Positions 9,051 through 24,232 of a stretch of 27,285 nucleotides of DNA are shown here, in pieces. The notes beneath the pieces were generated by a model. That model had not been told where the DNA came from. It saw only the letters and a list, made by a program, of their open reading frames with translations, and did not search any database. Numbering within the stretch: the first letter of the stretch is position 1; every line of letters begins with the position of its first letter. The translations under genes and the position numbers were made by a program. Source of the DNA: a virus (Duplodnaviria; Heunggongvirae; Uroviricota; Caudoviricetes); the IMG/VR virus record IMGVR_UViG_2724679238_000012, positions 1-27,285 of that record. One strand, 5' to 3'.

Positions 9051-12000
9051 CTATATTTTTCCGCCTACGCCTTTAAACTTCTCAATAAACGAGACGATTT
9101 TCTGGAAAACTGCCTGTTTTTTCGTTTTATATTGCGGATTTAACGGACTAAGTTTTGGTAATGTTTCGTTTAATTCTGTGCCATTTTCGGTGGCATATTC
9201 GCGTTTTAAAGACGTGCGAATATAGCGTTTTGCTGCCTCTTCATTGAGATTTTCTTCTTTTATCAATGCTTCTGCTTCACGTTGCTGTTCGCGTTGAGCA
9301 AACGTAAAGAATGCGTCAATGATGCTGGCTTTGTCCGGTAAATCATCCAGGTTCGTTTGCTGAATAAAATCGACCACCAGGCCCTCTTTAGCACGGTTCC
9401 CTAGGCTTGAACGAATTAAGCGTTTGACCTCTTCGATCATTTCGCCCTTGCCTTTATTTTGTCTGTTGTGTTCGAAAATCAGTCCAAGGATATAATCCAG
9501 GTTTATTTCCTGAGACTTCAGCAAATCGACCTCAAAAACTACGTCATCCCAGTCAGTGGTTGATTTCTCTTTTTTCTCAGCTTCTTTCTCACGGCGCTGC
9601 CAGTCGCGAATATCGTTATAGGCAGAACGATAATCCTGAATCTTGCGATCAGCAGGGAGACGAATTGTTTGCAATTCAGCGAACTTTTCATCATCCACAT
9701 AATGTTCTGCTTTGAATTTTTCTACCGCAACAGGATCGCTAAGATCGATTTGTTGCAGGGCTTTTAGCGTGGCAAATTCATCATAGTTTTGCAGGATGTT
9801 CTCGGCACGCAGGTATTCGCCAAACAGTTTAACGAAGTCTTTCTTCTCTTTTTCACTTTCAATACTGGTAGGGTCAGGGAACCGTTGTTCCAGTTCTGAA
9901 ACTACTGTCATGAAGCCGCGTTTAGCTTCACCAGTAGCAGCATCAGTAAAGCCTTCCATATACTCTGTATAACTCTTTTCTAACACCACATTTTTGGTGT
10001 TTTTGTCACCAAACAGCGTTATGGCATCAATAGTTGAGCGTTCCAGATCCCGAAAAGTGACGATATTACCGAAGGTTTTAGTTGCATCATAAATACGGTT
10101 GGTGCGGGAAAATGCCTGCATCAGGCCGTGAAAACGCAAGTTTTTATCGACGAATAGCGTGTTCAATGTTGGAGCGTCGAAGCCGGTTAAAAACATCCCA
10201 ACGACAATTAACAGATCGATATCCTGATTTTTAACCCGTTGGGCTAAATCACGATAGTAGTTCTGAAAACCGTTACTGTCGGTGCTAAAGTTAGTTTTAA
10301 AATGGCTGTTATATTCACGAATTGCAGCGTCCAGAAACTCTTTAGCACTGCTGTCCATTGCGCTGGTATCAAAAGTTTCATCGGAAATTTCACCAATGGC
10401 ATTTTGTTCTTCATTGGCGGCAAAGGAGAAGATTGTCGCAATACGCAGCGGTTTATAGGTAGCCGATTTATTAGCGGCTTCTTCTTGTAACCGTTTAAAC
10501 GTCGCATAATAGGCTTTCGCGGCATCCACGCTGCTCACTGCCAACATAGCATTAAAACCTTTTGAGCCAGGGAAGGTACGATGGGTTTTCTGGCGGAAAT
10601 TATTCAGAATATATTGCGTGATTTCCTGAATACGCATGGGATGAAGAAACGCCTGCTGATTTTCAGCCGCACTCAGTTTTTTCTCGTCAGTTTCTGTCTC
10701 TAAAGACTTAAACTGTGGCCGCACATCGTTGTAGTCCACCTTGAATTTGAGCACTTTTTCGTCACGAATCGCATCGGTAATTACATACGAATGCAATTCA
10801 CGACCAAATACGCTGGCGGTTGTTTCTGAGCCTAAGGCGTTTTCCGGGAAAATAGGGGTGCCGGTAAAACCAAACTGATAATAGCGTTTGAATTTCTTCT
10901 TCAGGTTTTTCTGAGCTTCTCCAAACTGGCTGCGGTGGCATTCATCAAATATAAACACCACTTGCTGATTATATACAGGCAGGTCGCTTTCTGCTTTCAT
11001 CAGGTTATTGAGTTTCTGAATAGTAGTGACGATAATTTTGTTATCGTCCTTATCCAGATTTCGTTTAAGGCCTGCGGTATTTTCCGAGCCGTTGACGCTG
11101 TCTGGCGAAAAACGCTGATATTCCTTCATGGTCTGGTAATCGAGGTCTTTCCTGTCGACCACAAAGAAAACTTTATCAATAAAGTCCAGTTCTGTTGCCA
11201 GACGCGCGGCTTTAAAGCTGGTCAGGGTTTTACCGGAACCCGTGGTGTGCCAGATATACCCACCGCTTTCCGGTTTTGACCAGTTCTTCGCTGTAAAGGA
11301 GCTCTTAATTTTCCACAGAATGCGCTCGGTGGCGGCAATCTGGTACGGTCGCATCACCAGTAGCGTCTGACTACTGTCAAAAACGCTGTAGTTCACCAGA
11401 ACATTCAGCAGAGTATGTTTCTGGAAAAAGGTAGCGGTAAAGTCTTTGAGGTCTTTAATCAGCGTGTTGTCTGATTTCGCCCAATTCATGGTGAAGTCAA
11501 AACTGTTTTTATCGCGCTTTGTCGTGTTGGCAAAATAACGGGTATCGGTGCCGTTAGAAATGACAAACAGTTGCAGATACTTAAACAGGGAATTTTCGCT
11601 GTTAAAACTCTCTTTACTGTAACGATGTATCTGGTTGAAAGCCTCACGAATCGCCACCCCGCGTTTTTTTAGTTCGATTTGCACCAGCGGTAAACCATTA
11701 ACCAGGATCGTGACGTCATAACGGTTAGCATGAGAACCCGTCTGTTCAAACTGCTGGATAATCTGCACCTTATTGCGCATGAGATTCTTTTTATCTATCA
11801 AATAGATGTTCTCAAGTCGCTCGTCATCAAAAATAAAGTCGCAAATATAGTCGATATGGATTTTACGGGTCTTATCCAGAATGCCATCGCTCGGGTTGTC
11901 CAGATACTGCTCCGTGAAACGCCGCCACTCGCTGTCATTAAACACCACACCATTGAGGCTCTGAAGCTGTTGTCGAACATTGGCCAGCATCGCCGACTGA

Positions 12001-12212
12001 GATTTTACGGATATAAATTCATAGCCCTGATTTCGCAGGTCCTGAATCAGTTCCTGTTCCAGGTCCGATTCGCTCTGGTAGCTGTCGCCTGTTGGCTCAG
12101 CTTTGATGTACTTATCAAGGACGATAAAGTTATTGGATTCAGCAATGGTGTGTGTTTGATGAGTCATAGCGCATCCTTTGTGCCGTCTGGCAAGGGCCGG
12201 AAGTTCCGGCAC
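9051..12212 (-). CDS. hsdR: Type I restriction enzyme R subunit (HsdR), helicase/endonuclease
   Basis: 1053-aa ORF with Walker A HTTGSGKT and DEAD/DECH box FIFDECH; size and position after hsdM-hsdS. Confidence 0.9.
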
Positions 12213-12273
12213 TTAAAAAATAGTCTATATACAGACCGGATGTTAAGGTGGCCCGGTCGGTAGCAATGGTCAA

Positions 12274-13509
12274 TTAATTACTGACAGTATCAGGTTTCGG
12301 GAAACTGAACAGTAAATCACGATAGTACTCGTATTGTTTCTGGCGCAACTCGATTTCACGCGGGAGCCCCTCGGTGATGGAGTTGGTCAGAGTATCGAAT
12401 TTGTCGAGTATTTCGACAATGCGAGCTTGCCAGGTGAGTGGCGGTACAGGGATTGGGTATTTTATTATATCCTCTTTACTGCCACGCGGCATTTTTGCTC
12501 CTTTAGCATGCTGCATGTTGTATTCAAAGAATTTGTCATCTGCCAAAATATGATATAGATATCTGGTATTTATTGAGCTATCTATACAACGAATAACCAA
12601 TACATCACCATTTGTTCCACCGATACAATCTGCTTGCCAAATTTTTTTCAAATATGGGCGGATATTCCCAATCAGTATATCGTTAGGTATAAACTCTGTT
12701 AATTTACCTGATGTCGGCACATGATTAGATAATGATTTTCCTGCTCTGTTTTGCAGCAGATTATCTACGCCAACATAATTCCTTTTATCAAGTAGTTCGA
12801 AACTAATTTTTGTTTTCGAGTATTGAGCTGCTTCTCCCAAAGTTTTCCACTCAACCTCGCCCTCTTTAAAACTCAACAACTGCTCGCGATAGTAGTTGTA
12901 CTGTTTTTTACGCATGTTAAGCTCTGCTGTCAGCTCTGCTGTCAGGGCGCTGAATGTGTCCAGAATCCGAACGATTTCAGACTGAATGGCAAGGGATTTT
13001 TCCGGATTTTCCGGACAGGGGATAGGGATAATAATTTTCGCCATATCCGATGCAGACACATCAATTACTTTAGTTCCCTTGGAGTATTTCCTTTTCTCAT
13101 TTGCAAAAGAATCCGTTTGCGTGAAATAGGCAAAGTATTTCCCAATAATAGTGCTATTTGGCTTGAAAATAGTTGCATGGCCACCAGTAACAGCTTGCTC
13201 TTTACCTAGATAAACAAGCGCCTTACCAACATCAGTAAAATTTTCGCTTGTGTTAGTAATAACAACATCACCAGAGTTAACCTTTTTAAGCTTCTTCGCC
13301 GTTTCATGGGAAACAAATGACTTTGTTGTTTCAGTAGATAATCCGTAAAAAGTATATATCTGACCATAGTGTATGGCAGGAACCCCTGATTCGGTAAAAT
13401 CAGACTTAGGCAATCCATTTCCACGAACTAATTCACCTAGTTTCCCCAATGGCAACCACTCAACCTCAACCCCATCCGGCAATTTTTCCAGATAACTCAA
13501 CTCGCTCAT
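12274..13509 (-). CDS. hsdS: Type I restriction-modification specificity subunit (HsdS), two target-recognition domains
   Basis: 411-aa ORF; conserved central and C-terminal repeats ([24 protein letters not shown] and [20 protein letters not shown]); ATGA overlap with hsdM. Confidence 0.85.
12921..12944. repeat. Two tandem copies of a 12-bp repeat (gctctgctgtca) encoding TAEL-TAEL in the HsdS central conserved region
   Basis: Seen directly in sequence and in the HsdS translation; the EcoR124I/II family is known to differ by copy number of this repeat. Confidence 0.8.
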
Positions 13510-15068
13510 TTCGGCACCTCGCAGCCTTCAATTTCAGCCACAATCGCATCAATATCTTTACGCAACTGGTCGATTTTGCTGACCGTGGTTTTCAGTTCTG
13601 CATTCAACTCAGCGATATCGATAATTTCGCGAGTATCTTTCGCTTCCACATAGCTGCTCACCGACAGGTTATAGTCATTAGCGACAACAGCCTCAAACGT
13701 GACAGATTTTGCCAGATGAGCAACATCTTCCTTGCTGGAAAATACCTGCATAATTTTTTCGATATGGGCATCGGTCAGGATGTTGTTGTTAGTCTCTTTT
13801 TTGAACAGTTCGCTGGCGTCAATAAACTGAACGTTGGTATCCGTTTTATGTTTAGACAGCACCAGAATATTTACGGCAATGGTGGTGCCAAAGAACAGGT
13901 TCGGTGCCAGTGAAATCACGGTTTCGACATAGTTATTGTCGACCAGATACTGACGGATTTTCTGCTCTGCGCCGCCACGGTAAAAAATACCCGGGAAGCA
14001 GACAATCGCAGCACGACCTTTGGCCGAAAGATAGTTCAGCGCATGTAATACAAACGCAAAGTCAGCTTTGGATTTGGGGGCCAGAACGCCAGCTGGGGCA
14101 AAACGCTCATCGTTAATCAGCGTCGGGTCATCGCTGCCAATCCATTTCACCGAATACGGCGGGTTAGAGACGATGGCATCAAACGGTTTTTCATCTCTGA
14201 AGTGCGGTTCAGTCAGCGTATTGCCCAGCTTGATATCAAACTTGTCGTAGTTGATGTTGTGCAAAAACATGTTCATACGTGCCAGGTTATAGGTCGTATG
14301 GTTGATTTCCTGTCCGAAAAAGCCTTCTTCAATGATATGGTTATCAAACTGCTTTTTAGCCTGCAACAACAGCGAACCGGAACCCGCGGCCGGGTCGTAG
14401 ATTTTGTTAACGTGGGTCTGCCCGTGCATAGCCAGTTGTGCAATCAGCTTGGAGACGTGCTGCGGTGTAAAGAACTCACCGCCTGACTTACCGGCATTTG
14501 CCGCATAGTTAGAAATCAGGAACTCATAGGCATCACCGAACAGGTCAATCTGATGTTCATTGAAGTCACCAAGGTTTAACCCTTCGACCCCTTTCAGAAC
14601 CGCAGCCAGGCGGGCATTTTTATCCTTAACGGTGTTACCCAGGCGGTTACTGGTTGTATCAAAATCAGCAAACAAACCTTTGATGTCAGCTTCTGAAGGG
14701 TAACCGTAAGCAGAGCTTTCGATAGCAACGAAGATACTATTTAAATCTGCATTCAGTCTGTCATTGGTATTTGCTTTCGCCGCTACGTTGCAGAAAAGCT
14801 GACTGGGGTAGATGAAGTAGCCTTTGGTTCTGATGGCATCGTCTTTAATGTCATCAGTAATAATGCCGTCATCAAGTGCCGCATAACAGATGCTGTCATC
14901 ACCATTTTCCATATAACTGGAAAAATTTTCGCTGATAAAACGGTAGAAAAGTGCGCCCAGAACGTATTGCTTAAAATCCCATCCATCGACCGAACCCCTG
15001 ACATCGTTAGCAATTTGCCAGATTTGACGATGAAGCTCTGCACGTTGTTGAATACTTGTCATTTTCAT
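13506..15068 (-). CDS. hsdM: Type I RM N6-adenine DNA methyltransferase subunit (HsdM)
   Basis: 520-aa ORF; motif [11 protein letters not shown] and motif IV NPPY (NPPYSVKW). Confidence 0.9.
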
Positions 15069-15199
15069 CCACTTATTTCAGGCTTATGTAATTGGCGGTG
15101 ATTCTACAGCAACTTGGATGCTTTAGCAGTTCGGACATTAGGCTACGAATGACCTGCCTAGAGGTTTGTTAAGCCGCAAAGTGCTGGTGCTTTATGCCT

Positions 15200-15240
15200 G
15201 TGAAGTTTATAATTGTGTACACATAACGAGTACACGAGGT
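15200..15240 (+). promoter_or_regulatory. phd-doc promoter/operator: TATAAT-like -10 overlapping palindromes TGTGTACACA and GAGTACAC
   Basis: aagtttataattgtgtacacataacgagtacacgagg directly upstream of phd; the Phd/Doc-autoregulated operator of P1 contains these palindromic sites (from memory). Confidence 0.65.
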
Positions 15241-15244
15241 ATTT

Positions 15245-15466
15245 ATGCAATCCATTAACTTCCGTACCGCGCGCGGCAACCTTTCTGAAGTGCTCAACAA
15301 TGTTGAGGCCGGGGAAGAGGTTGAAATCACCCGCAGAGGCCGTGAGCCAGCAGTAATTGTCAGCAAGGCTACTTTCGAAGCCTACAAAAAAGCGGCGCTG
15401 GATGCTGAATTTGCATCCCTGTTTGACACCCTGGACTCCACCAACAAGGAACTGGTTAACCGATAA
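15245..15466 (+). CDS. phd: Phd antitoxin (prevent host death)
   Basis: 73-aa product [41 protein letters not shown]... recognised as P1 Phd; stop overlaps doc start. Confidence 0.95.
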
Positions 15467-15846
15467 TGAGGCATATATCACCGGAAGAACTTATTGCGCT
15501 TCATGATGCGAATATAAACCGCTACGGCGGCCTGCCGGGAATGTCAGATCCGGGTAGGGCAGAGGCCATTATCGGGAGAGTTCAGGCCAGAGTTGCCTAC
15601 GAAGAGATCACCGACCTTTTCGAAGTCTCCGCCACCTACCTGGTGGCTACAGCGAGAGGGCATATATTCAATGATGCCAATAAGCGTACCGCGCTAAACA
15701 GTGCGCTGTTATTTCTACGCCGTAACGGGGTGCAGGTATTTGATTCACCTGAACTGGCAGACCTTACCGTAGGGGCTGCGACCGGAGAGATATCTGTATC
15801 TTCTGTCGCCGACACGTTACGTAGATTGTATGGTTCCGCGGAGTAG
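15466..15846 (+). CDS. doc: Doc toxin (death on curing; Fic-fold kinase)
   Basis: 126-aa product recognised as P1 Doc; immediately follows phd with overlapping stop/start. Confidence 0.95.
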
Positions 15847-15850
15847 ATTA

Positions 15851-16030
15851 ATGGCACGTAAATACAACAAATTGTCCTGTGAAGCGTTAAAGATGCTTCT
15901 TGATGGCGTGAGTCGCCGCGAGGTAAAGCAATACCTGGTTGGTAAGCAAATTGGTGCTAGGACCGCTATTGCTGTGTTATGCCGTCAGGAAATGGTTGTG
16001 CTTAAACAGAGAATGCCGGGCAGCAGATAA
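15851..16030 (+). CDS. Small post-doc protein (position of P1 pdcA; identity unverified)
   Basis: ORF track 15830..16030; I prefer ATG at 15851 with GGAG 8 nt upstream (MARKYNKLSCEALK...). Confidence 0.4.
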   Translation: MARKYNKLSCEALKMLLDGVSRREVKQYLVGKQIGARTAIAVLCRQEMVVLKQRMPGSR

Positions 16031-16057
16031 AGCCCAATCAGTGATGAAAGGTGTGAT

Positions 16058-17101
16058 GTGAAAGCCGTAATTACTCCCTTTGTACAAAAAGAGCTTGGCC
16101 TCGCCACGTTCAAAGTGGATCAGGAGGTCAGAAAGCTGGTGGAGGCTGGCCGTAAATTTATTATGGAGCCGGTGCCGCGTGAGTTAATCGAGCACATGGA
16201 AGACGGCCTCGTTATTACCGAGCAAACCATGGCAACAAATGAGGCGTTGCAGCCGTTTTTTAACAGCGATGAACTGTTTCGCCGTATTGGTGGAATTGAC
16301 GCGCTGGTGGCGTGGTTGCGTAGGAAAGAGGGTCAATGCCAGGCCGCAGATCGTAGTTGGTGTGACAACCATATTGTCCACGCTGAACGAGACAATAGCG
16401 CGGTGTTGTTGTGCTGGCATCACGATAACCATTACCGGATGCGTGGTTTTAATGAGCTGAAAGAAACGCTGCACAATAATCGCGTTAACTGGATACTGGA
16501 TGTCGCCCGTCAGGAAATGGGCCTTTCAAATAGCCATGATTTAAGTATTCAGGAGCTGTGCTGGTGGGCTTTCATGCGCAACATGATGCACCTGATGCCA
16601 GAAGAAGTCTGCCGCATATCAATAAATAAGATGAAGGCTACTCCGCAGGATAGCGGACCTCTGAAAGAGGCGGATATTCGCCCGTATGACGATCGCGCTA
16701 CAGCATATGTTCAGATGATGGAAGAACGCGCCGCGCCGATGCGTGCAAAAGTATGCCCTGTGGATGTTGACTCCGACCCAGGTATGGCGCATTTCAAAAT
16801 ACCAAAACTTCAATCGCTAAAATTGCCCGAGTACATGGACTTTGTGGCTTCCCGTCCATGCTGTGGGTGTGGAGCTGCGGGAGCTGGCGCTCACATTACG
16901 CCTTATATCGTTCGTCATAGTCGATTATGCGCGCATGACATTTATGCTATTCCTCTGTGCCAGTCATGCCAGCGTGATATTGAGCGTGACCGCGATAATT
17001 GGGAGAAGACGCACGGTAGGCTGGCGATGCATCAACGATTGTTCTTTGATTACGCGCTTGGAGTCGGCGCTATCACAAGTCACTCGTCGAGCGTTAGATA
17101 A
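16058..17101 (+). CDS. Cys-rich hypothetical protein (position of P1 pdcB; identity unverified)
   Basis: 347-aa ORF with GTG start; C-terminal CCGCG...LCAHD...CQSCQ cysteine cluster. Confidence 0.55.
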
Positions 17102-17189: not shown

Positions 17190-17657
17190 ATGTTACTTAA
17201 CTGGCAGGGACGCCACTTCATGGAAATAAATCACTCACGAATAACATCGTACGAGATTGCGGATTACATGATCCGCACTAAATCTCTTCTATCAGCGAAA
17301 GAACTCGCAGCAATTCTTGAAAAGGAATACCCGCATCTGGATGTCGATAAGCGCGATGTTTATCTGCGCTTAAAGGCTATCGCTGTGTCTAAGCATTCGT
17401 CTGTTTTGATTGATGACAGTACACGCCCACGTAGATTTCAGATCCACTCTCTGAATCCTGAATTCTTTCGCCGCAGCCGCGCTCCGCGCCGGTTTGATGA
17501 AAAACTCCAGAACGAACTCTATATGACGCAGGACGAAAAGGAACGCCGGGAGCACCAGCCTTGGGTGATGGCGCGTCAACTTTTCAATAAGGTGGTCCGT
17601 CAGCACCGTCATTACCCAGTGCGCCGTAAAGCCCCTTCCTTCCGGTCGGGGATATAA
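17190..17657 (+). CDS. lpa: Probable Lpa (late promoter activator) by position; start may be the Met at 17220
   Basis: 155-aa basic protein between the pdc genes and pacA as in the P1 gene order; a weak C1-operator-like site (aaattgccctaatgtattg) lies upstream at about 17103-17119. Sequence identity to Lpa not verifiable from memory. Confidence 0.45.
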   Translation: MLLNWQGRHFMEINHSRITSYEIADYMIRTKSLLSAKELAAILEKEYPHLDVDKRDVYLRLKAIAVSKHSSVLIDDSTRPRRFQIHSLNPEFFRRSRAPRRFDEKLQNELYMTQDEKERREHQPWVMARQLFNKVVRQHRHYPVRRKAPSFRSGI

Positions 17658-17659
17658 GG

Positions 17660-18960
17660 CGCGGTTTTCCACCTGGCTTTTTTTGTTTAAAATAGTGGGA
17701 TGAAACGACTACAAGCATTTAAATTCCAGTTAAGACCAGGTGGTCAACAGGAGCGTCAAATGAGGCGCTTTGCCGGAGCTTGTCGTTTCGTTTTCAATCG
17801 TGCCCTGGCACTTCAGAATGAGAATCATGAAGCCGGGAACAAATATATTCATTATGCAAAGATGACTTCCTGGCTGGTTGAATGGAAAAATGCTACTGAA
17901 ACGCAATGGCTTAAAGATTCGCCATCACAGCCATTGCAACAGTCACTGAAAGACCTTGAGCGGGCTTACAAAAACTTCTTCCAGAATCGGGCTGCTTTTC
18001 CCCGATTCAAAAAGCGGGGACAGAATGATGCATTCCGCTACCCGCAGGGCGTTAAGCTCGATCAGGAAAACAGCCGTATTTTTCTGCCGAAACTTGGCTG
18101 GATGCGCTACCGGAACAGCCGTCAAGTCACGGGCGTTGTGAAAAATGTCACGGTCAGCCAGTCCTGCGGTAAGTGGTACATCAGTATTCAGACAGAAAGT
18201 GAAGTATCAACTCCGGTTCACCCTTCAGCATCAATGGTCGGGCTGGATGCTGGCGTGGCTAAACTCGCCACGCTGTCAGATGGCACAGTCTTTGAGCCTG
18301 TAAACAGTTTTCAGAAAAACCAGAAGACGCTGGCGAGACTTCAGCGGCAGTTAAGCCGCAAGGTCAAATTCAGCAATAACTGGCAGAAGCAGAAACGCAA
18401 AATACAGCGACTGCATTTCCGTATCGCAAATATCCGCAGGGACTACCTTCACAAAGTCACAACGACCGTCAGCAAAAACCACGCAATGATTGTCATTGAG
18501 GATTTGAAGGTTAAAAACATGGCAAAGTCAGCAGCGGGTACGGTCAGCCAGCCGGGGCGCAATGTCCGGACAAAATCAGGTTTAAACCGTTCGATACTGG
18601 ATCAGGGCTGGTATGAAATGCGCCGCCAGCTTGAGTACAAGCAGCTCTGGCGTGGCGGTCAGGTACTGGCTGTTCCGCCAGCGTACACAAGCCAGCGTTG
18701 CGCGTGCTGTGGTCATACAGCGAAAGAAAATCGCCTGTCACAAAGTAAATTCAGATGCCAGGTATGTGGATATACAGCGAACGCCGATGTAAATGGCGCT
18801 CGTAACATTTTAGCGGCGGGGCACGCCGTACTTGCCTGTAGAGGGATGGTGCAGTCAGGCCGCCCGTTGAAGCAGGAACCAGACGCTGAGCAATCAGCCG
18901 TCACCCGCTAATGGGAATCCCCCTCCTGAGTCACGAAGTGCGACGGTGGGGGAGGATGTC
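17660..18960 (+). mobile_element. Probable IS200/IS605-family element remnant carrying tnpB only (no tnpA), with imperfect hairpin just 3' of tnpB
   Basis: No HuH/Y1 transposase ORF adjacent; imperfect inverted repeat atccccctcct...ggtgggggaggat at 18917-18957 immediately after the tnpB stop. Boundaries are approximate. Confidence 0.4.
17700..18911 (+). CDS. tnpB: IS200/IS605-family TnpB (OrfB) RNA-guided nuclease-like protein
   Basis: 403-aa ORF; Ruv[17 protein letters not shown], Ruv[14 protein letters not shown], zinc finger CACCGH...CQVCGY, Ruv[14 protein letters not shown]; resembles E. coli IS609-type InsQ. Confidence 0.85.
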
Positions 18961-18976: not shown

Positions 18977-20170
18977 GTGACCTGGGACGATCACAAGAAG
19001 AATTTTGCTCGCCTGGCGCGAGATGGTGGTTACACCATCGCACAATATGCCGCCGAGTTTAATCTCAACCCAAACACCGCACGTCGTTATCTCCGTGCCT
19101 TCAAAGAAGACACCAGGACTGCGGACAGCCGCAAGCCAAATAAGCCAGTCAGGAAGCCACTAAAAAGCATGATCATTGATCACTCTAATGATCAACATGC
19201 AGGTGATCATATTGCGGCTGAAATAGCGGAAAAACAAAGAGTTAATGCCGTTGTCAGTGCCGCAGTCGAGAATGCGAAGCGCCAAAATAAGCGCATAAAT
19301 GATCGTTCAGATGATCATGACGTGATCACCCGCGCCCACCGGACCTTACGTGATCGCCTGGAACGCGACACCCTGGATGATGATGGTGAACGCTTTGAAT
19401 TCGAAGCTGGCGATTACCTGATAGATAACGTTGAAGCGCGGAAGGCCGCGCGCGCTATGTTGCGTCGGTCCGGGGCCGATGTTCTGGAAACCACTCTTCT
19501 TGAAAAGTCTCTTTCTCATCTCCTTATGCTGGAGAACGCCAGGGATACGTGTATTCGCCTGGTGCAGGAAATGCGCGATCAGCAAAAAGACGATGATGAA
19601 GGTACTCCGCCTGAATACCGTATCGCGAGCATGCTAAACAGCTGTTCCGCGCAGATAAGCAGCCTGATCAACACCATTTACAGCATCCGGAATAACTATC
19701 GAAAAGAAAGCCGGGAGGCGGAAAAGCACGCTTTGTCTATGGGGCAAGCTGGCATTGTTAAGCTGGCATACGAACGAAAGCGTGAAAATAACTGGTCAGT
19801 GCTGGAAGCAGCTGAATTCATCGAGGCGCATGGCGGGAAAGTGCCGCCCCTGATGCTGGAGCAAATCAAAGCCGATCTGCGTGCTCCTAAGACCAATACC
19901 GATGATGAGGAAAACCAAACAGCATCTGGCGCTCCATCACTTGAAGATCTGGATAAAATCGCGCGAGAACGGGCCGCCAGCCGCCGCGCTGATGCCGCAT
20001 TGTGGATTGAGCAACGTAGAGAAGAAATTGCCGATATCGTCGATACAGGTGGTTATGGTGATGTCGATGCGGAAGGCATATCAAACGAAGCATGGCTTGA
20101 ACAGGATCTGGACGAAGACGAGGAGGAAGACGAAGAAGTTACCCGCAAACTGTACGGGGATGATGATTAA
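18977..20170 (+). CDS. pacA: PacA, terminase small subunit (pac-recognition component)
   Basis: 397-aa product with GTG start; contains the pac site; size and sequence consistent with P1 PacA. Confidence 0.9.
19168..19330. other. pac packaging site: 4 + 3 clustered TGATCA-type hexamers (7 GATC Dam sites) flanking the cleavage region
   Basis: GATC at 19171, 19178, 19190, 19205 and at 19301, 19313, 19324, all in TGATCA/TGATCG context, inside pacA. Confidence 0.85.
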
Positions 20171-21869: not shown

Positions 21870-21995
21870 GAGATCAATGGTAGTGCTGGCTGGGCTGCCG
21901 AAAGGCAGGCCGGTTCCCTTTGACGCCGGTAGTCTCAACCCAGTCAGTGCTACCGCCATTGAGATTGAGACCTCACGCGGTAGCTCCTTAACTTA
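21870..21995 (+). ncRNA. Candidate c4-like antisense RNA / structured regulatory leader upstream of the icd-like ORF
   Basis: GNRA-loop hairpin ctgcc-gaaa-ggcag; ctaccg can pair with upstream cggtag or downstream gcggtag; loop gtctcaacc is complementary to attgagac, which occurs in loops at about 21772 and 21965. Boundaries and strand are a guess. Confidence 0.3.
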
Positions 21996-22014
21996 GTCAA
22001 AGGAGGCTGCCATT

Positions 22015-22236
22015 ATGGCTACTATCCCTACCCCAACTCATCCTGAATTTATCTGGCGCTTTTACTCCTGCCAGAAACGTCACTATCACTTCGTTATCGC
22101 AACAACAGAAGATGAGGCTCGCTCTCAGCTTCCGGATGCTCCCTGCATTTTCTCTGCCCGTTTTTCCACTGATTTGTGCAATTCTCTCAGTTACTGGTGT
22201 CTCCCTGTTAACGCTTCTGCTCAGGAGGGACTATGA
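22015..22236 (+). CDS. 73-aa Icd-like small protein, translationally coupled to ant
   Basis: Strong RBS AAAGGAGG; stop overlaps ant ATG (ATGA); same length and arrangement as P1 icd, but sequence identity not verifiable from memory. Confidence 0.45.
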   Translation: MATIPTPTHPEFIWRFYSCQKRHYHFVIATTEDEARSQLPDAPCIFSARFSTDLCNSLSYWCLPVNASAQEGL

Positions 22237-23348
22237 GAACGTCATTAGTCACCCGTGAAGAGATGATCGAGGCAATTGAACAGCATACCGCCTGTATCAG
22301 TACCAGGGATATACCGGGCGTTATTGCCAACTATTTCATGATCACCAAACAACTTTACCGGAGAAAGGACAAGAACGCGGTTCACCGTATCCTGTTGTCT
22401 GATATCCGCGAATACCTGCTCGAACAGGGGCATCTGAATTACGCAACCATCGCAGCCGAAGCACGCAAGGAGGCACACAGAATGAAAGCAACTAACGTTA
22501 AATCAGAAAAAATTCATGCAACTTCAGTTCAGAAATCGGAGCTGGTGGTTGCTCAAAATCAGCCGGATGAAATTCCCGTTCTGGAGTGGCAGGGGGTGCG
22601 TGTAGTGACAACCGAGACTCTTGCTAAAGGGTATGGGACAGAAACAATCCGTATTCGCCAGAATCATCATGAGAACAAAGTGCGCTTTGTTGAAGGGAAG
22701 CACTTTTTCAAGGTTATTGGCGATGAGCTGAAAAATTTGCGGGTAGCTTTAAACTACTCACAAAATCCAGTCTCACCCAAAGCCCGCTCACTCACTCTCT
22801 GGACAGAACGCGGCGCTGCCCGTCACGCTAAAATGCTCGAAACCGATCAGGCATGGGCATTCTTTGAAAAACTGGAAGACAGCTACTTCCGACAAAAAGA
22901 ACAGCAACCGATCGCAATCCCCCAGACGCTTCCAGAAGCCCTGCGTCTGGCTGCCGAACTGGCTGAACAAAAGCAACTTCTGGAACAGAAAGCCCACCAG
23001 CTAAATCAGCAGCTGGTGGCCGCCGCTCCTAAAGTCGATTTTGCCGACCGGGTATCAGTAGCTAAAGGGATCCTGATTGGGAATTTTGCAAAGGTTGTTG
23101 GACTTAAGCAAAACGCGCTGTTTGCCTGGTTACGGGAGAACGGCATCCTGATAGCGTCCGGTGGACGTAAAAATGTGCCGTTCCAGCAGTACATCAATGC
23201 GGGGTATTTCACGGTGAAAGAAGTGGTGCTGGATGATGAAGATGGCTACCAGATACGGTTGACGCCTCAATTAACGGGTAAAGGCCAGCAGTGGTTGACG
23301 CGTAAACTGCTCGATGCTGGCTTGTTAAAACCGGTGGCGGCTGAATAA
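22233..23348 (+). CDS. ant: Phage antirepressor (Ant-like), ORF6N/Bro-N-type N-terminal region plus KilAC-type C-terminal domain
   Basis: 371-aa ORF; VLEWQGVRVVTTETLAKGYG...NKVRFVEGKHFFKV resembles ORF6N; C-terminal IASGGRKNVPFQQYINAGYFTVKEVVLDDEDGYQIRLTPQLTGKGQQWL typical of KilAC antirepressor domain. Confidence 0.75.
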   Translation: MRTSLVTREEMIEAIEQHTACISTRDIPGVIANYFMITKQLYRRKDKNAVHRILLSDIREYLLEQGHLNYATIAAEARKEAHRMKATNVKSEKIHATSVQKSELVVAQNQPDEIPVLEWQGVRVVTTETLAKGYGTETIRIRQNHHENKVRFVEGKHFFKVIGDELKNLRVALNYSQNPVSPKARSLTLWTERGAARHAKMLETDQAWAFFEKLEDSYFRQKEQQPIAIPQTLPEALRLAAELAEQKQLLEQKAHQLNQQLVAAAPKVDFADRVSVAKGILIGNFAKVVGLKQNALFAWLRENGILIASGGRKNVPFQQYINAGYFTVKEVVLDDEDGYQIRLTPQLTGKGQQWLTRKLLDAGLLKPVAAE

Positions 23349-23380: not shown

Positions 23381-24232
23381 TTATTGCGCGCTTTCGGGGT
23401 TGTCGTTTACTGGCTGCCCCTTCTTGGTTTTACGGCTGCGCGTAACTGATGCGGCTGACTTAACCTTTTTCTCTTCGCGAGTGATGGCAATTTGTTTTTT
23501 TACATTTTCAATATCTGCCAGGCGATATATTTTTGCTTGCGGCCAGCGGTCGCAGATGATCGGTTCTATGGAGTCATAAAGGCTAAATTTTGCTTTTTCG
23601 AATTCACCGTTGATGATAATTCCATCACGGAGAGTTTCATCGCAGATAAACACGCCACACAGTGGCACATGGTAACTAACTGATTTACCATCATTGTAGT
23701 TAGGGCTACTGGAAATGTAGTGGACGCGCAGCATTGTTTCGCTAAAGCCGTGTACGCGCATACGGAATTTTTCATCCTCCGGGTACTGCTTCATTAGCTC
23801 TTTTGTTGCTTCCAGGTTCTCTATGTATTTCGCACTGTGCTCATTGATCCCCGCGCTTTTTTGGATGCGAATGTCCTTATCAATCAGATGAATAATGCGG
23901 CCAGCGGTCATGTTGACGCTGTTCACAGCTTCTGTCTGATAAGTTGTAACCTTACGCACACCGCGAAGGATGTTAGGCACTGGATATAAAATAGTCTTTG
24001 GGATATTGAGGTCTGGGTACTGTTCCAGTTCCCGCGCCATTAAAGTCCATTTATCAATTTCAGCCTGAATGCTGTCAGTTTCTTTGAACGGTAGAACGAC
24101 AACCGGGCGTACAGGACGACCGTCGCTGGCTGTATCAACGTGTTGGGCGCGTGCAACAGCTTTTTTTAGAAAGAGATCCCTGAAGCTGACGAACTCCTGG
24201 TACAGTTGTTCGCCGTAGACATAATTTATCAT
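23381..24232 (-). CDS. c1: C1 repressor (master repressor of lysogeny)
   Basis: 283-aa product MINYVYGEQLYQEFVSFRDLFLKKAVARAQHVD... recognised as P1 C1. Confidence 0.95.
   Translation of the reverse strand: MINYVYGEQLYQEFVSFRDLFLKKAVARAQHVDTASDGRPVRPVVVLPFKETDSIQAEIDKWTLMARELEQYPDLNIPKTILYPVPNILRGVRKVTTYQTEAVNSVNMTAGRIIHLIDKDIRIQKSAGINEHSAKYIENLEATKELMKQYPEDEKFRMRVHGFSETMLRVHYISSSPNYNDGKSVSYHVPLCGVFICDETLRDGIIINGEFEKAKFSLYDSIEPIICDRWPQAKIYRLADIENVKKQIAITREEKKVKSAASVTRSRKTKKGQPVNDNPESAQ

Follow-up and report, generated by a model that had tools for sequence, protein, structure and literature searches.

The hsd region of the window (the whole 27,285-nucleotide stretch that was analysed) is very probably an intact and ordinary type IC restriction-modification cassette of the EcoR124 family, carried on a P1-like plasmid prophage. 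A blastn comparison with P1 (NC_005856) matched window positions 8001-8975 to P1 83508-84482 and positions 15169-16200 to P1 87970-89001, the latter with 98.3% identity and no gaps, and the pmgT-humD block of P1 was found to be replaced by the cassette (Table 1). The G+C content of the cassette (0.40-0.46) is slightly lower than that of its flanks (0.46-0.50). The three genes are arranged in the order hsdM-hsdS-hsdR on the minus strand, and all three open reading frames are intact; there is a 4-bp overlap between hsdM and hsdS, and 106 bp separate hsdS from hsdR. No prrC-like or other embedded gene was found among the ORFs of the window, and there is no room for one within the cassette. P1-like elements are known to vary at this position, between pap and phd-doc, and pmgT-humD has been named variable region 8 of P1-like phage-plasmids (PMC9603915). 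The breakpoints are those annotated in the P1 GenBank record as homologous to the hsd flanks of EcoDXXI and R124/3.

Table 1. Features of the hsd cassette and its flanks (window coordinates)
Feature	Position	Strand	Size or content	Basis
Retained P1 pmgT leader	8786..8975	+		P1 record annotation carried over by alignment
hsd cassette	8976..15168	-	6.2 kb	blastn vs P1 NC_005856
hsdR, restriction/translocase subunit	9051..12167	-	1038 aa	Pfam HSDR_N, SWI2_SNF2, T1R_D3-like, EcoR124_C
Promoter-like site upstream of hsdR	12217..12246	-	TTAACA-18-TATTTT	consensus scan only, 9/12 match
hsdS, specificity subunit	12274..13509	-	411 aa	two Methylase_S stretches; alignment to 7bst_A
hsdS C-conserved region	12438..12277	-		91% identical to EcoR124I HsdS 7bst_A
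hsdS TRD2	12831..12439	-		19% identity to EcoR124I HsdS 7bst_A
hsdS central conserved region	13029..12832	-		94% identical to EcoR124I HsdS 7bst_A
12-bp tandem repeat	12920..12945	-	2.2 copies; encodes (L)TAEL-TAEL	TRF score 52, 100% match
hsdS TRD1	13443..13030	-		19% identity to EcoR124I HsdS 7bst_A
hsdS N-conserved region	13509..13444	-		91% identical to EcoR124I HsdS 7bst_A
hsdM, N6-adenine methyltransferase subunit	13506..15068	-	520 aa	Pfam HsdM_N + N6_Mtase
Putative hsdM promoter	15101..15129	-	-35 CTGCTA, 17 bp, -10 TAGAAT	cross-context conservation
P1-type phd promoter and palindromic Phd/Doc operator	15185..15238	+		P1 Pphd annotation via 98.3% ungapped alignment
phd-doc toxin-antitoxin operon	15245..15846	+		Pfam PhdYeFM_antitox, Fic/DOC; 98% identical to P1

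The first-pass annotation had proposed that the type I system is complete and belongs to the type IC (EcoR124) family, and both parts of the proposal held. HsdM carries NPPY at residue 302 and DPAAGSG at residue 225, and differs from the EcoR124 M protein (7bst_D) at 13 of 520 residues (97.5% identity). The mechanical ORF of hsdR opens at GTG 12212; the start adopted, ATG 12167, is the one shared with EcoR124I HsdR and RefSeq. HsdR, which was also called REase_I by PADLOC, has GSGKT at 311, DECH at 409, QIHRY at 180 and a D..ExK nuclease motif at 152-168. Aligned with EcoR124I HsdR (2w00) it scored 2298 bits, against a self-score of 2313, and seven substitutions were listed within about 968 aligned residues, an identity of about 99%. 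The catalytic motifs of type IC enzymes (NPPY, the AdoMet motif, Walker A, DECH, PD..ExK and QxxxY) were thus all present at the expected positions, two TRDs were found in HsdS, and HsdR has the EcoR124_C domain. Type IC membership is judged by how close HsdR and HsdM are to the EcoR124I subunits and by whether they can replace one another; the closeness was evident at the sequence level.

HsdS has the type IC layout, in which short conserved regions surround the pair of variable TRDs and the central helix holds a TAEL repeat; the internal repeat of its N-terminal motif was detected as direct repeat D1. TRD1 covers residues 23-160 and TRD2 residues 227-357. Because both TRDs are unlike those of EcoR124I, the half-sites should differ from GAA and RTCG. 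No TRD of known specificity was close enough for the target to be predicted: the best matches to TRDs of solved structure reached 21-28 bits, and the solved or named relatives, EcoKI TRD1 (27.6 bits) and a Thermoanaerobacter S subunit (21 bits), are far too distant. Literature searches found no methylome for this hsdS allele. Among homologues, one TRD was 95-100% identical while paired with another at about 20%, suggesting that TRD shuffling is modular. The activity of the cassette enzymes is deduced from their sequences. As in other members of the family, HsdS and two HsdM subunits would form a methyltransferase that would modify one adenine (to m6A) per strand of a bipartite, asymmetric target, and the addition of two HsdR subunits would give an ATP-driven translocating endonuclease cutting unmodified incoming DNA at a distance from that target.

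The best-scoring tandem repeat of the window, as detected by TRF, encodes the TAEL repeat of HsdS, and it was absent from all shuffles (0/100). Its unit is AGCTCTGCTGTC, with two copies at 12920-12943 and a periodic tract that reaches 12945. Two 12-bp copies had been reported at 12921-12944, which is the same tract with its register off by one base. The TAELTAEL codons occupy exactly 12942..12919 (HsdS residues 190-197). In the alignment with EcoR124I HsdS, each of these residues is paired with its counterpart in the TAEL x2 of that protein, within the central conserved region, in agreement with the earlier placement of the repeat in the region that determines the spacer. The accompanying statement, that TAEL copy number determines the gap length and changes through unequal crossing-over, is also that of the literature (PMC3874165), and the role of the repeat is documented in PMC12707154 as well. 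With two TAEL repeats in its central coiled-coil helix, HsdS is predicted to impose the EcoR124I-type spacing of 7 nt between methylated adenines, in contrast to the 8 nt of three-repeat enzymes. If unequal crossing-over or slippage added or removed a single 12-bp unit, the gap would shift by 1 bp, and the specificity with it.

Related natural alleles vary in the copy number of the repeat, as a standing polymorphism. IMG/VR contained 22 two-copy and 13 perfect three-copy alleles, each kind found in P1 context, and several TRD pairs occurred with differing TAEL copy numbers. Since one-, two- and three-copy alleles sharing recognition domains occur in nature, gap-length change of the EcoR124I/II type is a recurrent natural polymorphism. 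In the lineage of the window's own allele, the repeat units of the two-copy chromosomal E. coli form have diverged (CTT ACT.. / CTG ACA..), whereas the two units in the window are identical, and the one-copy form looks like a recombinant of the diverged chromosomal units. Among the best 120 matches of a protein search there were six three-copy alleles, and the middle repeat was mutated in all six (TAKL, TAEP, TAAL, TAEI, TAEF and TTEL); a natural absence of perfect triplets was nevertheless rejected on the basis of the 13 perfect three-copy alleles in IMG/VR.

It had been implied that a type I system in place of the type III system of P1 was surprising; the surprise did not survive comparison with other elements. 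E. albertii plasmid pEA15_2, which is 99.9% identical across the region, also carries a type III res/mod where P1 normally has it, indicating that the type I system is an addition and not a replacement. In junction-specific queries of PLSDB, the hsdM|phd junction was present in 661 plasmids and the P1-type humD|phd junction in 478. A comparison of whole blocks (483 plasmids with the cassette versus 4 with the full P1-type pap-humD-phd) was rejected as misleading, because the low count of 4 results mainly from variation elsewhere in the pap-humD-phd block. P1-type phd-doc therefore adjoins the type IC cassette more often than humD in PLSDB, and it is laboratory P1 that is atypical here. The cassette region was also matched at a coverage of at least 80% in 518 of 5,426 complete E. 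coli genomes, and the P1 record itself already notes the EcoDXXI and R124/3 homology at these exact breakpoints. Given that the majority of natural P1-like plasmid prophages have this cassette beside phd-doc, the cassette is real yet already known, its enzyme family, the role of its repeat and its genomic arrangement all having been documented before. Its role would most likely be lysogen defence and plasmid stabilisation, beside the type III system of the element. Naive hosts survive the entry of type IC systems (PMC12707154), which fits carriage by a mobile element.

One could envisage that the TAEL repeat is more than an evolutionary polymorphism and serves as a frequent, population-level phase-variation switch. 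Its units are identical in DNA while those of the closest allele have diverged, which suggests recent turnover, and both the natural recurrence of one-, two- and three-copy alleles that share their TRDs and the precedent of EcoR124I/EcoR124II (PMC3874165) point in the same direction. However, two 12-bp units with 26 nt of periodicity fall far below typical contingency-locus tracts, the 99.9% identical pEA15_2 aligns in one piece with 100% coverage, and the HsdS protein, which is identical to RefSeq WP_059257202.1, is found unchanged on 6 contigs. Phase-variable type I systems have either a long SSR tract or several hsdS genes together with inverted repeats and a recombinase, and the sole repeat of this kind was the 2.2-copy 12-mer. 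A tblastn search revealed a single hsdS and no further copies, and no significant inverted repeats were present in or around hsdS; shufflon-type phase variation, which would draw on silent hsdS copies and inverted repeats for recombinase-driven shuffling, was rejected on these grounds. We consider a frequent switch unlikely, and an evolutionary polymorphism the more probable reading. A different objection would be that the cassette is carried passively, silent or in decay, with restriction, modification or both unexpressed. Decay is seen in relatives: phage phi456 contains an extra stretch of about 1.2 kb, with additional called ORFs, between hsdR and hsdM, IS903B or IS3 lies inside the cassette in some plasmid copies, several records have no annotated S gene, and in two samples hsdM of the one-copy allele is interrupted by a nonsense codon (W15*). 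That related copies are sometimes inactivated argues that selection for activity is not universal. Nevertheless, the three ORFs in the window are full-length with every catalytic motif, HsdR and HsdM are 97.5-99% identical to their biochemically active EcoR124I counterparts, and the promoter-like block upstream of hsdM is conserved, so that a silent cassette is, in our judgement, very unlikely.

The control of the cassette bears on two further proposals. The putative hsdM promoter (-35 at 15129..15124, -10 at 15106..15101) lies inside cassette DNA and is the only block upstream of hsdM that P1-like elements, E. coli chromosomes and Klebsiella have kept in common; in the consensus scan no hsdM promoter reached the threshold. 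The promoter-like site upstream of hsdR sits within the 106-bp hsdS-hsdR gap. These promoter assignments rest on weak consensus matches. The conserved promoter-like elements suggest that hsdM-hsdS and hsdR are probably each transcribed from a cassette promoter of their own; a separate transcript for hsdR would be in keeping with type IC systems. On the other side of the junction, a Phd/YefM antitoxin gene (phd, 15245-15466) is followed by a Fic/Doc toxin gene (doc, 15466-15846) behind the P1 promoter and operator, as expected of P1 Phd/Doc, with the -35 at 15185-15190, the -10 TATAAT at 15208-15213 and the palindromic operator at about 15214-15238. The first-pass annotation took hsdM and phd-doc to share one divergent control region, from which it might follow that Phd/Doc autoregulation also governs the restriction-modification genes. 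The operons are indeed divergent, with merely 176 bp between the start codons, and the hsdM|phd juxtaposition has been kept in 661 plasmids. In contrast to the proposal, the conserved hsdM element and the phd promoter/operator are separate: the recombination breakpoint (15168/15169) runs between them, the hsdM block is retained at loci without phd-doc on E. coli chromosomes and in Klebsiella, and the operator is at least 85 bp beyond the putative hsdM -35. The two promoters appear to stand back-to-back without overlap, their -35 boxes about 55 bp apart, and shared control is most improbable. The retained P1 leader downstream of hsdR contains the C1 operator Op88 (8786-8802), predicted PpmgT promoters (8787-8830), a hairpin (8835-8857) and a 28-aa ORF (8886-8972), and all of these elements face the 3' end of hsdR. 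The hairpin was picked out as terminator-like on the minus strand and is a candidate hsdR terminator, and the interval from the leader to hsdR showed no intrinsic terminator that would act on plus-strand transcripts. There is a slim chance that the leader couples restriction to the immunity state of the prophage; if it does, convergent or antisense transcription over hsdR upon loss of C1 repression could reduce restriction in lytic growth. According to the P1 record, the EcoDXXI and R124/3 loci have kept the same leader downstream of hsdR. That it has been kept may just as well be a side effect of recombination at a fixed breakpoint.

The closest known systems are EcoR124I and EcoR124II of plasmids R124 and R124/3, the prototype of type IC, which have the same gene order, hsdM-hsdS-hsdR, and the same P1-derived DNA downstream of hsdR (per the P1 record). 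EcoR124I also has TAEL x2 at the same HsdS position, and its conserved HsdS regions are 91-94% identical to those described here. In contrast, both TRDs are unrelated to those of EcoR124I (19% identity; half-sites GAA and RTCG in that enzyme), the codons of the repeat unit are ACA GCA GAG CTG, and, unlike that of EcoR124I/II, this cassette resides within an otherwise complete P1-like prophage. EcoDXXI (type IC, TCA N7 RTTC) has hsd flanks that the P1 record describes as 96-98% identical to P1 84263-84482 and 87969-88647; as these share the breakpoints found here, phd-doc lies upstream of EcoDXXI hsdM too. The TAEL repeat of EcoDXXI has three copies, and its methylation interval is 8 nt (PMC3874165). 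EcoprrI, with its embedded PrrC anticodon nuclease, belongs to the same type IC family (PMC3874165), but it has three TAEL repeats, and a prrC-like gene is absent here. EcoP1I, the type III res/mod system of P1, is likewise a restriction-modification system of P1-like elements, but of a different enzyme class and at a different locus, outside the window. The same cassette at the same pap/phd-doc site is found in Escherichia phages phi456 and vB_EcoM-673R5, in pEA15_2 and in hundreds of PLSDB plasmids; most P1-like relatives differ in the TRDs of hsdS, so their matches break into two pieces around that gene, and the cassettes of some have three TAEL copies. The classic plasmid-borne type IC prototypes bear the same P1-derived flanks as this cassette.

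Across the cassette region the window shares 99.9% identity with plasmid pEA15_2 of Escherichia albertii; it is a P1-like plasmid prophage and very probably carries an intact type IC cassette with a specificity of its own. All three genes are intact minus-strand ORFs, with hsdS and hsdM overlapping by 4 bp. A purely mechanical ORF call starts hsdR at a GTG (12212); the predicted start is the ATG at 12167, in agreement with EcoR124I HsdR and with the RefSeq annotation of the near-identical pEA15_2. Pfam assigned HsdM_N and N6_Mtase to HsdM, two Methylase_S stretches to HsdS, and HSDR_N, SWI2_SNF2, T1R_D3-like and EcoR124_C to HsdR, and the PADLOC labels (MTase_I, Specificity_I and REase_I) agree. 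The complete type I system described in the first-pass annotation was thus recovered, together with every motif named there; PD..ExK and QxxxY nuclease motifs were found in addition.

Features of the type IC cassette and its flanks (window coordinates)
Feature	Position	Strand	Remark
hsdM	15068..13506	-	intact ORF, 520 aa
hsdS	13509..12274	-	intact ORF, 411 aa
hsdR	12167..9051	-	intact ORF, 1038 aa from ATG
phd	15245-15466	+	divergent from hsdM; Pfam
doc	15466-15846	+	divergent from hsdM; Pfam
phd promoter	-35 15185-15190, -10 15208-15213	+	-10 TATAAT; P1 annotation transfer
phd palindromic operator	~15214-15238	+	P1 annotation transfer
Putative hsdM promoter	-35 15129..15124, -10 15106..15101	-	conserved block, inside cassette DNA
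Promoter-like site 5' of hsdR	12246..12217	-	TTAACA-18-TATTTT; promoter-like match
Candidate hsdR terminator	8857..8835	-	hairpin then T-run; terminator-like site
C1 operator Op88	8786-8802	+	ATTGCTCTAATAAATCT; retained from P1
28-aa hydrophobic ORF	8886-8972	+	MNTAFKIIMAAIYFWLFSITFGGIVAHG; good Shine-Dalgarno

Blastn aligned window 8001-8975 with P1 83508-84482 on the left and 15169-16200 with P1 87970-89001 on the right. These breakpoints put a 6193-bp cassette (8976-15168) in place of a 3487-bp P1 block, pmgT-pmgU-pmgV-upfM-N-O-hot-lxr-humD; pmgT-humD is one of eight highly variable regions in a survey of P1-like phage-plasmids (PMC9603915). At 80% coverage or more, the 7.1-kb region was matched in 483 PLSDB plasmids and, among 5,426 complete E. 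coli genomes, in 518. With a 600-bp query that has the hsdM-phd junction at its centre, the same coverage threshold gave 661 PLSDB plasmids, as against 478 for the equivalent humD-phd junction of P1. It had been implied that the type I system stands in for the type III system of P1; however, the near-identical pEA15_2 also encodes a type III endonuclease-methyltransferase pair at the usual P1 res/mod position (41769-46627 of its locus, L001, outside the window), so that the type I system is additional and the element has at least two restriction systems. A Dam-family methyltransferase gene of 3.3 kb (L001 731-4018) is present on that plasmid too.

The isolated phages phi456 and vB_EcoM-673R5 also carry the cassette. 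In phi456 (locus L003, 4987-7424) the stretch from hsdR to hsdM is about 1.2 kb longer than in the window, and three ORFs (356, 326 and 96 aa) are called in it, one of them annotated 'putative baseplate hub protein', which suggests that hsdS is interrupted there. On three Klebsiella pneumoniae contigs (L082-L084, 65-110 kb), a type IC cassette that has related TRDs (90% and 75%) and a triple repeat, TAEL-TAKL-TAEL, adjoins a GmrSD_N (type IV restriction) gene and not phd-doc, and a related cassette is found on E. coli chromosomes beside autotransporter and GTPase genes. From these neighbours, the cassette moves among at least three contexts.

The phd-doc genes lie 176 bp from the hsdM start, and the first-pass annotation had proposed that hsdM shares its promoter region with the phd-doc operator. 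The phd promoter and operator, placed by carrying the P1 annotation across an ungapped alignment, lie in DNA that comes from P1, on the right-hand side of the breakpoint. When the sequences upstream of hsdM in the window, phi456, two E. coli chromosomal loci and one Klebsiella locus were aligned, one conserved block was seen (CTGnnn-17 bp-TAGAAT or TAAAAT). The predicted promoters would therefore stand back to back, about 55 bp apart and without overlap, which does not bear out a common region. Because the block persists at loci lacking phd-doc, hsdM probably carries its own promoter; we call this promoter putative, since the block matches the consensus weakly and went unflagged in the consensus scan.

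On the left, the retained P1 leader (8786-8975) holds Op88, predicted PpmgT promoters and the 28-aa ORF, all facing the hsdR 3' end; the breakpoint directly follows the stop codon of this ORF, which is without annotation in P1. That the C1-controlled Op88/PpmgT leader could drive antisense transcription into hsdR upon induction seems to us very unlikely. A hairpin (9006-9035) with a perfect 10-bp stem (CTTGCGGGTT...AACCCGCAAG) stands between the left cassette end and the stop codon of hsdR; the A-run after it on the plus strand is a T-run before it on the minus strand, so that it fits a canonical terminator on neither.

Elsewhere in the window, a 403-aa TnpB-type ORF (17700-18911, plus strand) with OrfB_IS605, Cas12f1-like TNB and HTH_OrfB_IS605 domains, annotated in pEA15_2 as an RNA-guided endonuclease, sits between the late-promoter activator gene lpa (17190-17657) and an ORF (18977-20170) annotated in pEA15_2 as terminase, where pacA stands in P1. 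No TnpA ORF was seen near it. An Icd-like gene (about 21994-22215) and, after it, a KilAC antirepressor gene are annotated in pEA15_2; ANT and ORF6N domains were found in the window counterpart of the latter (22233-23348, plus strand). The pair (21994-23348, plus strand) directly adjoins the c1 repressor gene (23381-24232, minus strand), an arrangement that we take to be unlike that of P1; a further icd/ant pair is present in pEA15_2, beyond cre.

Two tandem copies of the 12-bp unit AGCTCTGCTGTC occupy 12920-12943, with the periodicity running on to 12945. This is the best-scoring tandem repeat of the window (TRF score 52), and none of 100 shuffles contained it. The coding strand reads CTG ACA GCA GAG CTG ACA GCA GAG CTT, L-TAEL-TAEL, HsdS residues 190-197; it is the tract reported previously, one base out of register. 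A review (PMC3874165) describes EcoR124I (GAA N6 RTCG) as having two copies of this 12-bp repeat and EcoR124II (GAA N7 RTCG) as having three.

Among the best 120 HsdS homologues, many pair a TRD1 of 98-100% identity with an unrelated TRD2 (~20%), or vice versa, which is classical domain shuffling. A second hsdS was not found in the window by tblastn, nor was any inverted-repeat architecture in or around hsdS. A pattern scan of IMG/VR gave 35 type IC hsdS central regions, 22 with two TAEL copies and 13 with three perfect copies; alleles of both kinds adjoin pap and/or phd-doc, and one TRD pair occurs in the P1 context with two copies (L007) and with three (L028). Several TRD pairs vary in this way, further pairs having 1/2/3, 2/3 or 1/2 copies, and copy-number change is therefore a recurrent natural event. 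The window's two units are mutually identical. Those of a two-copy chromosomal E. coli allele of its TRD pair (97% identical, beside the autotransporter and GTPase genes) have diverged to CTT ACT GCA GAG and CTG ACA GCA GAG, and the one-copy allele, CTT ACA GCA GAG, reads as expected if recombination had occurred between two such units. This allele (P0009; E. coli contigs L075, 2448-4004, and L077) is the only one-copy version of the pair, and the neighbouring hsdM carries a W15* nonsense mutation (TGG-to-TAG, codon 15) in two independent samples, suggesting a decayed system. All six three-repeat HsdS proteins among the best 120 homologues (P0016, P0031, P0069, P0096, P0097 and P0118) are altered by a point change, located in the middle unit or beyond it (TAKL, TAEP, TAAL, TAEI, TAEF, TTEL). 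The contrast with the 13 perfect triplets of IMG/VR may be a sampling effect, or such mutations may stabilise the triplet.

By near-identity to EcoR124I, we infer from sequence that an M2S methyltransferase would mark a bipartite target and that an R2M2S complex would translocate and cut unmodified DNA. Naive hosts survive entry of type IC systems (PMC12707154), and such non-lethal entry suits a phage-plasmid. Relatives with IS insertions or nonsense codons occur, so inactivation of such cassettes does happen. Earlier documentation or public annotation already covers the family, what the repeat does, the flanking DNA and the abundance, and an identical HsdS is in RefSeq (WP_059257202.1).

According to the P1 reference record, P1 84263-84482 shares 96% identity with DNA downstream of the EcoDXXI hsd locus, 84399-84482 shares 98% with DNA downstream of hsdR on R124/3, and 87969-88647 (phd promoter, phd and doc) matches DNA upstream of the EcoDXXI hsd locus at 98%. 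These limits coincide with the breakpoints of the window's cassette, indicating that the classical type IC loci share its P1-derived frame. HsdR scored 2298 bits against EcoR124I HsdR (2w00; self score 2313), with only 7 substitutions within the ~968 aligned residues displayed, and of the 520 residues of HsdM, 13 are not those of the EcoR124 M protein (7bst_D). The alignment of HsdS with EcoR124I HsdS (7bst_A) runs from end to end, with identities of 91%, 94% and 91% in the N-terminal, central and C-terminal conserved regions. Judged by these alignments, the cassette is a genuine type IC system, and its half-sites are uncharacterised. The two TAEL units fall within the central conserved region of HsdS and not outside its spacer-determining part, so the refuting condition named in the first-pass annotation does not hold; the predicted spacing is of the EcoR124I type, with methylated adenines 7 nt apart. 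The cassette thus resembles EcoR124I in carrying TAEL x2 at the exactly aligned position, but differs from it in both TRDs, which are only 19% identical.
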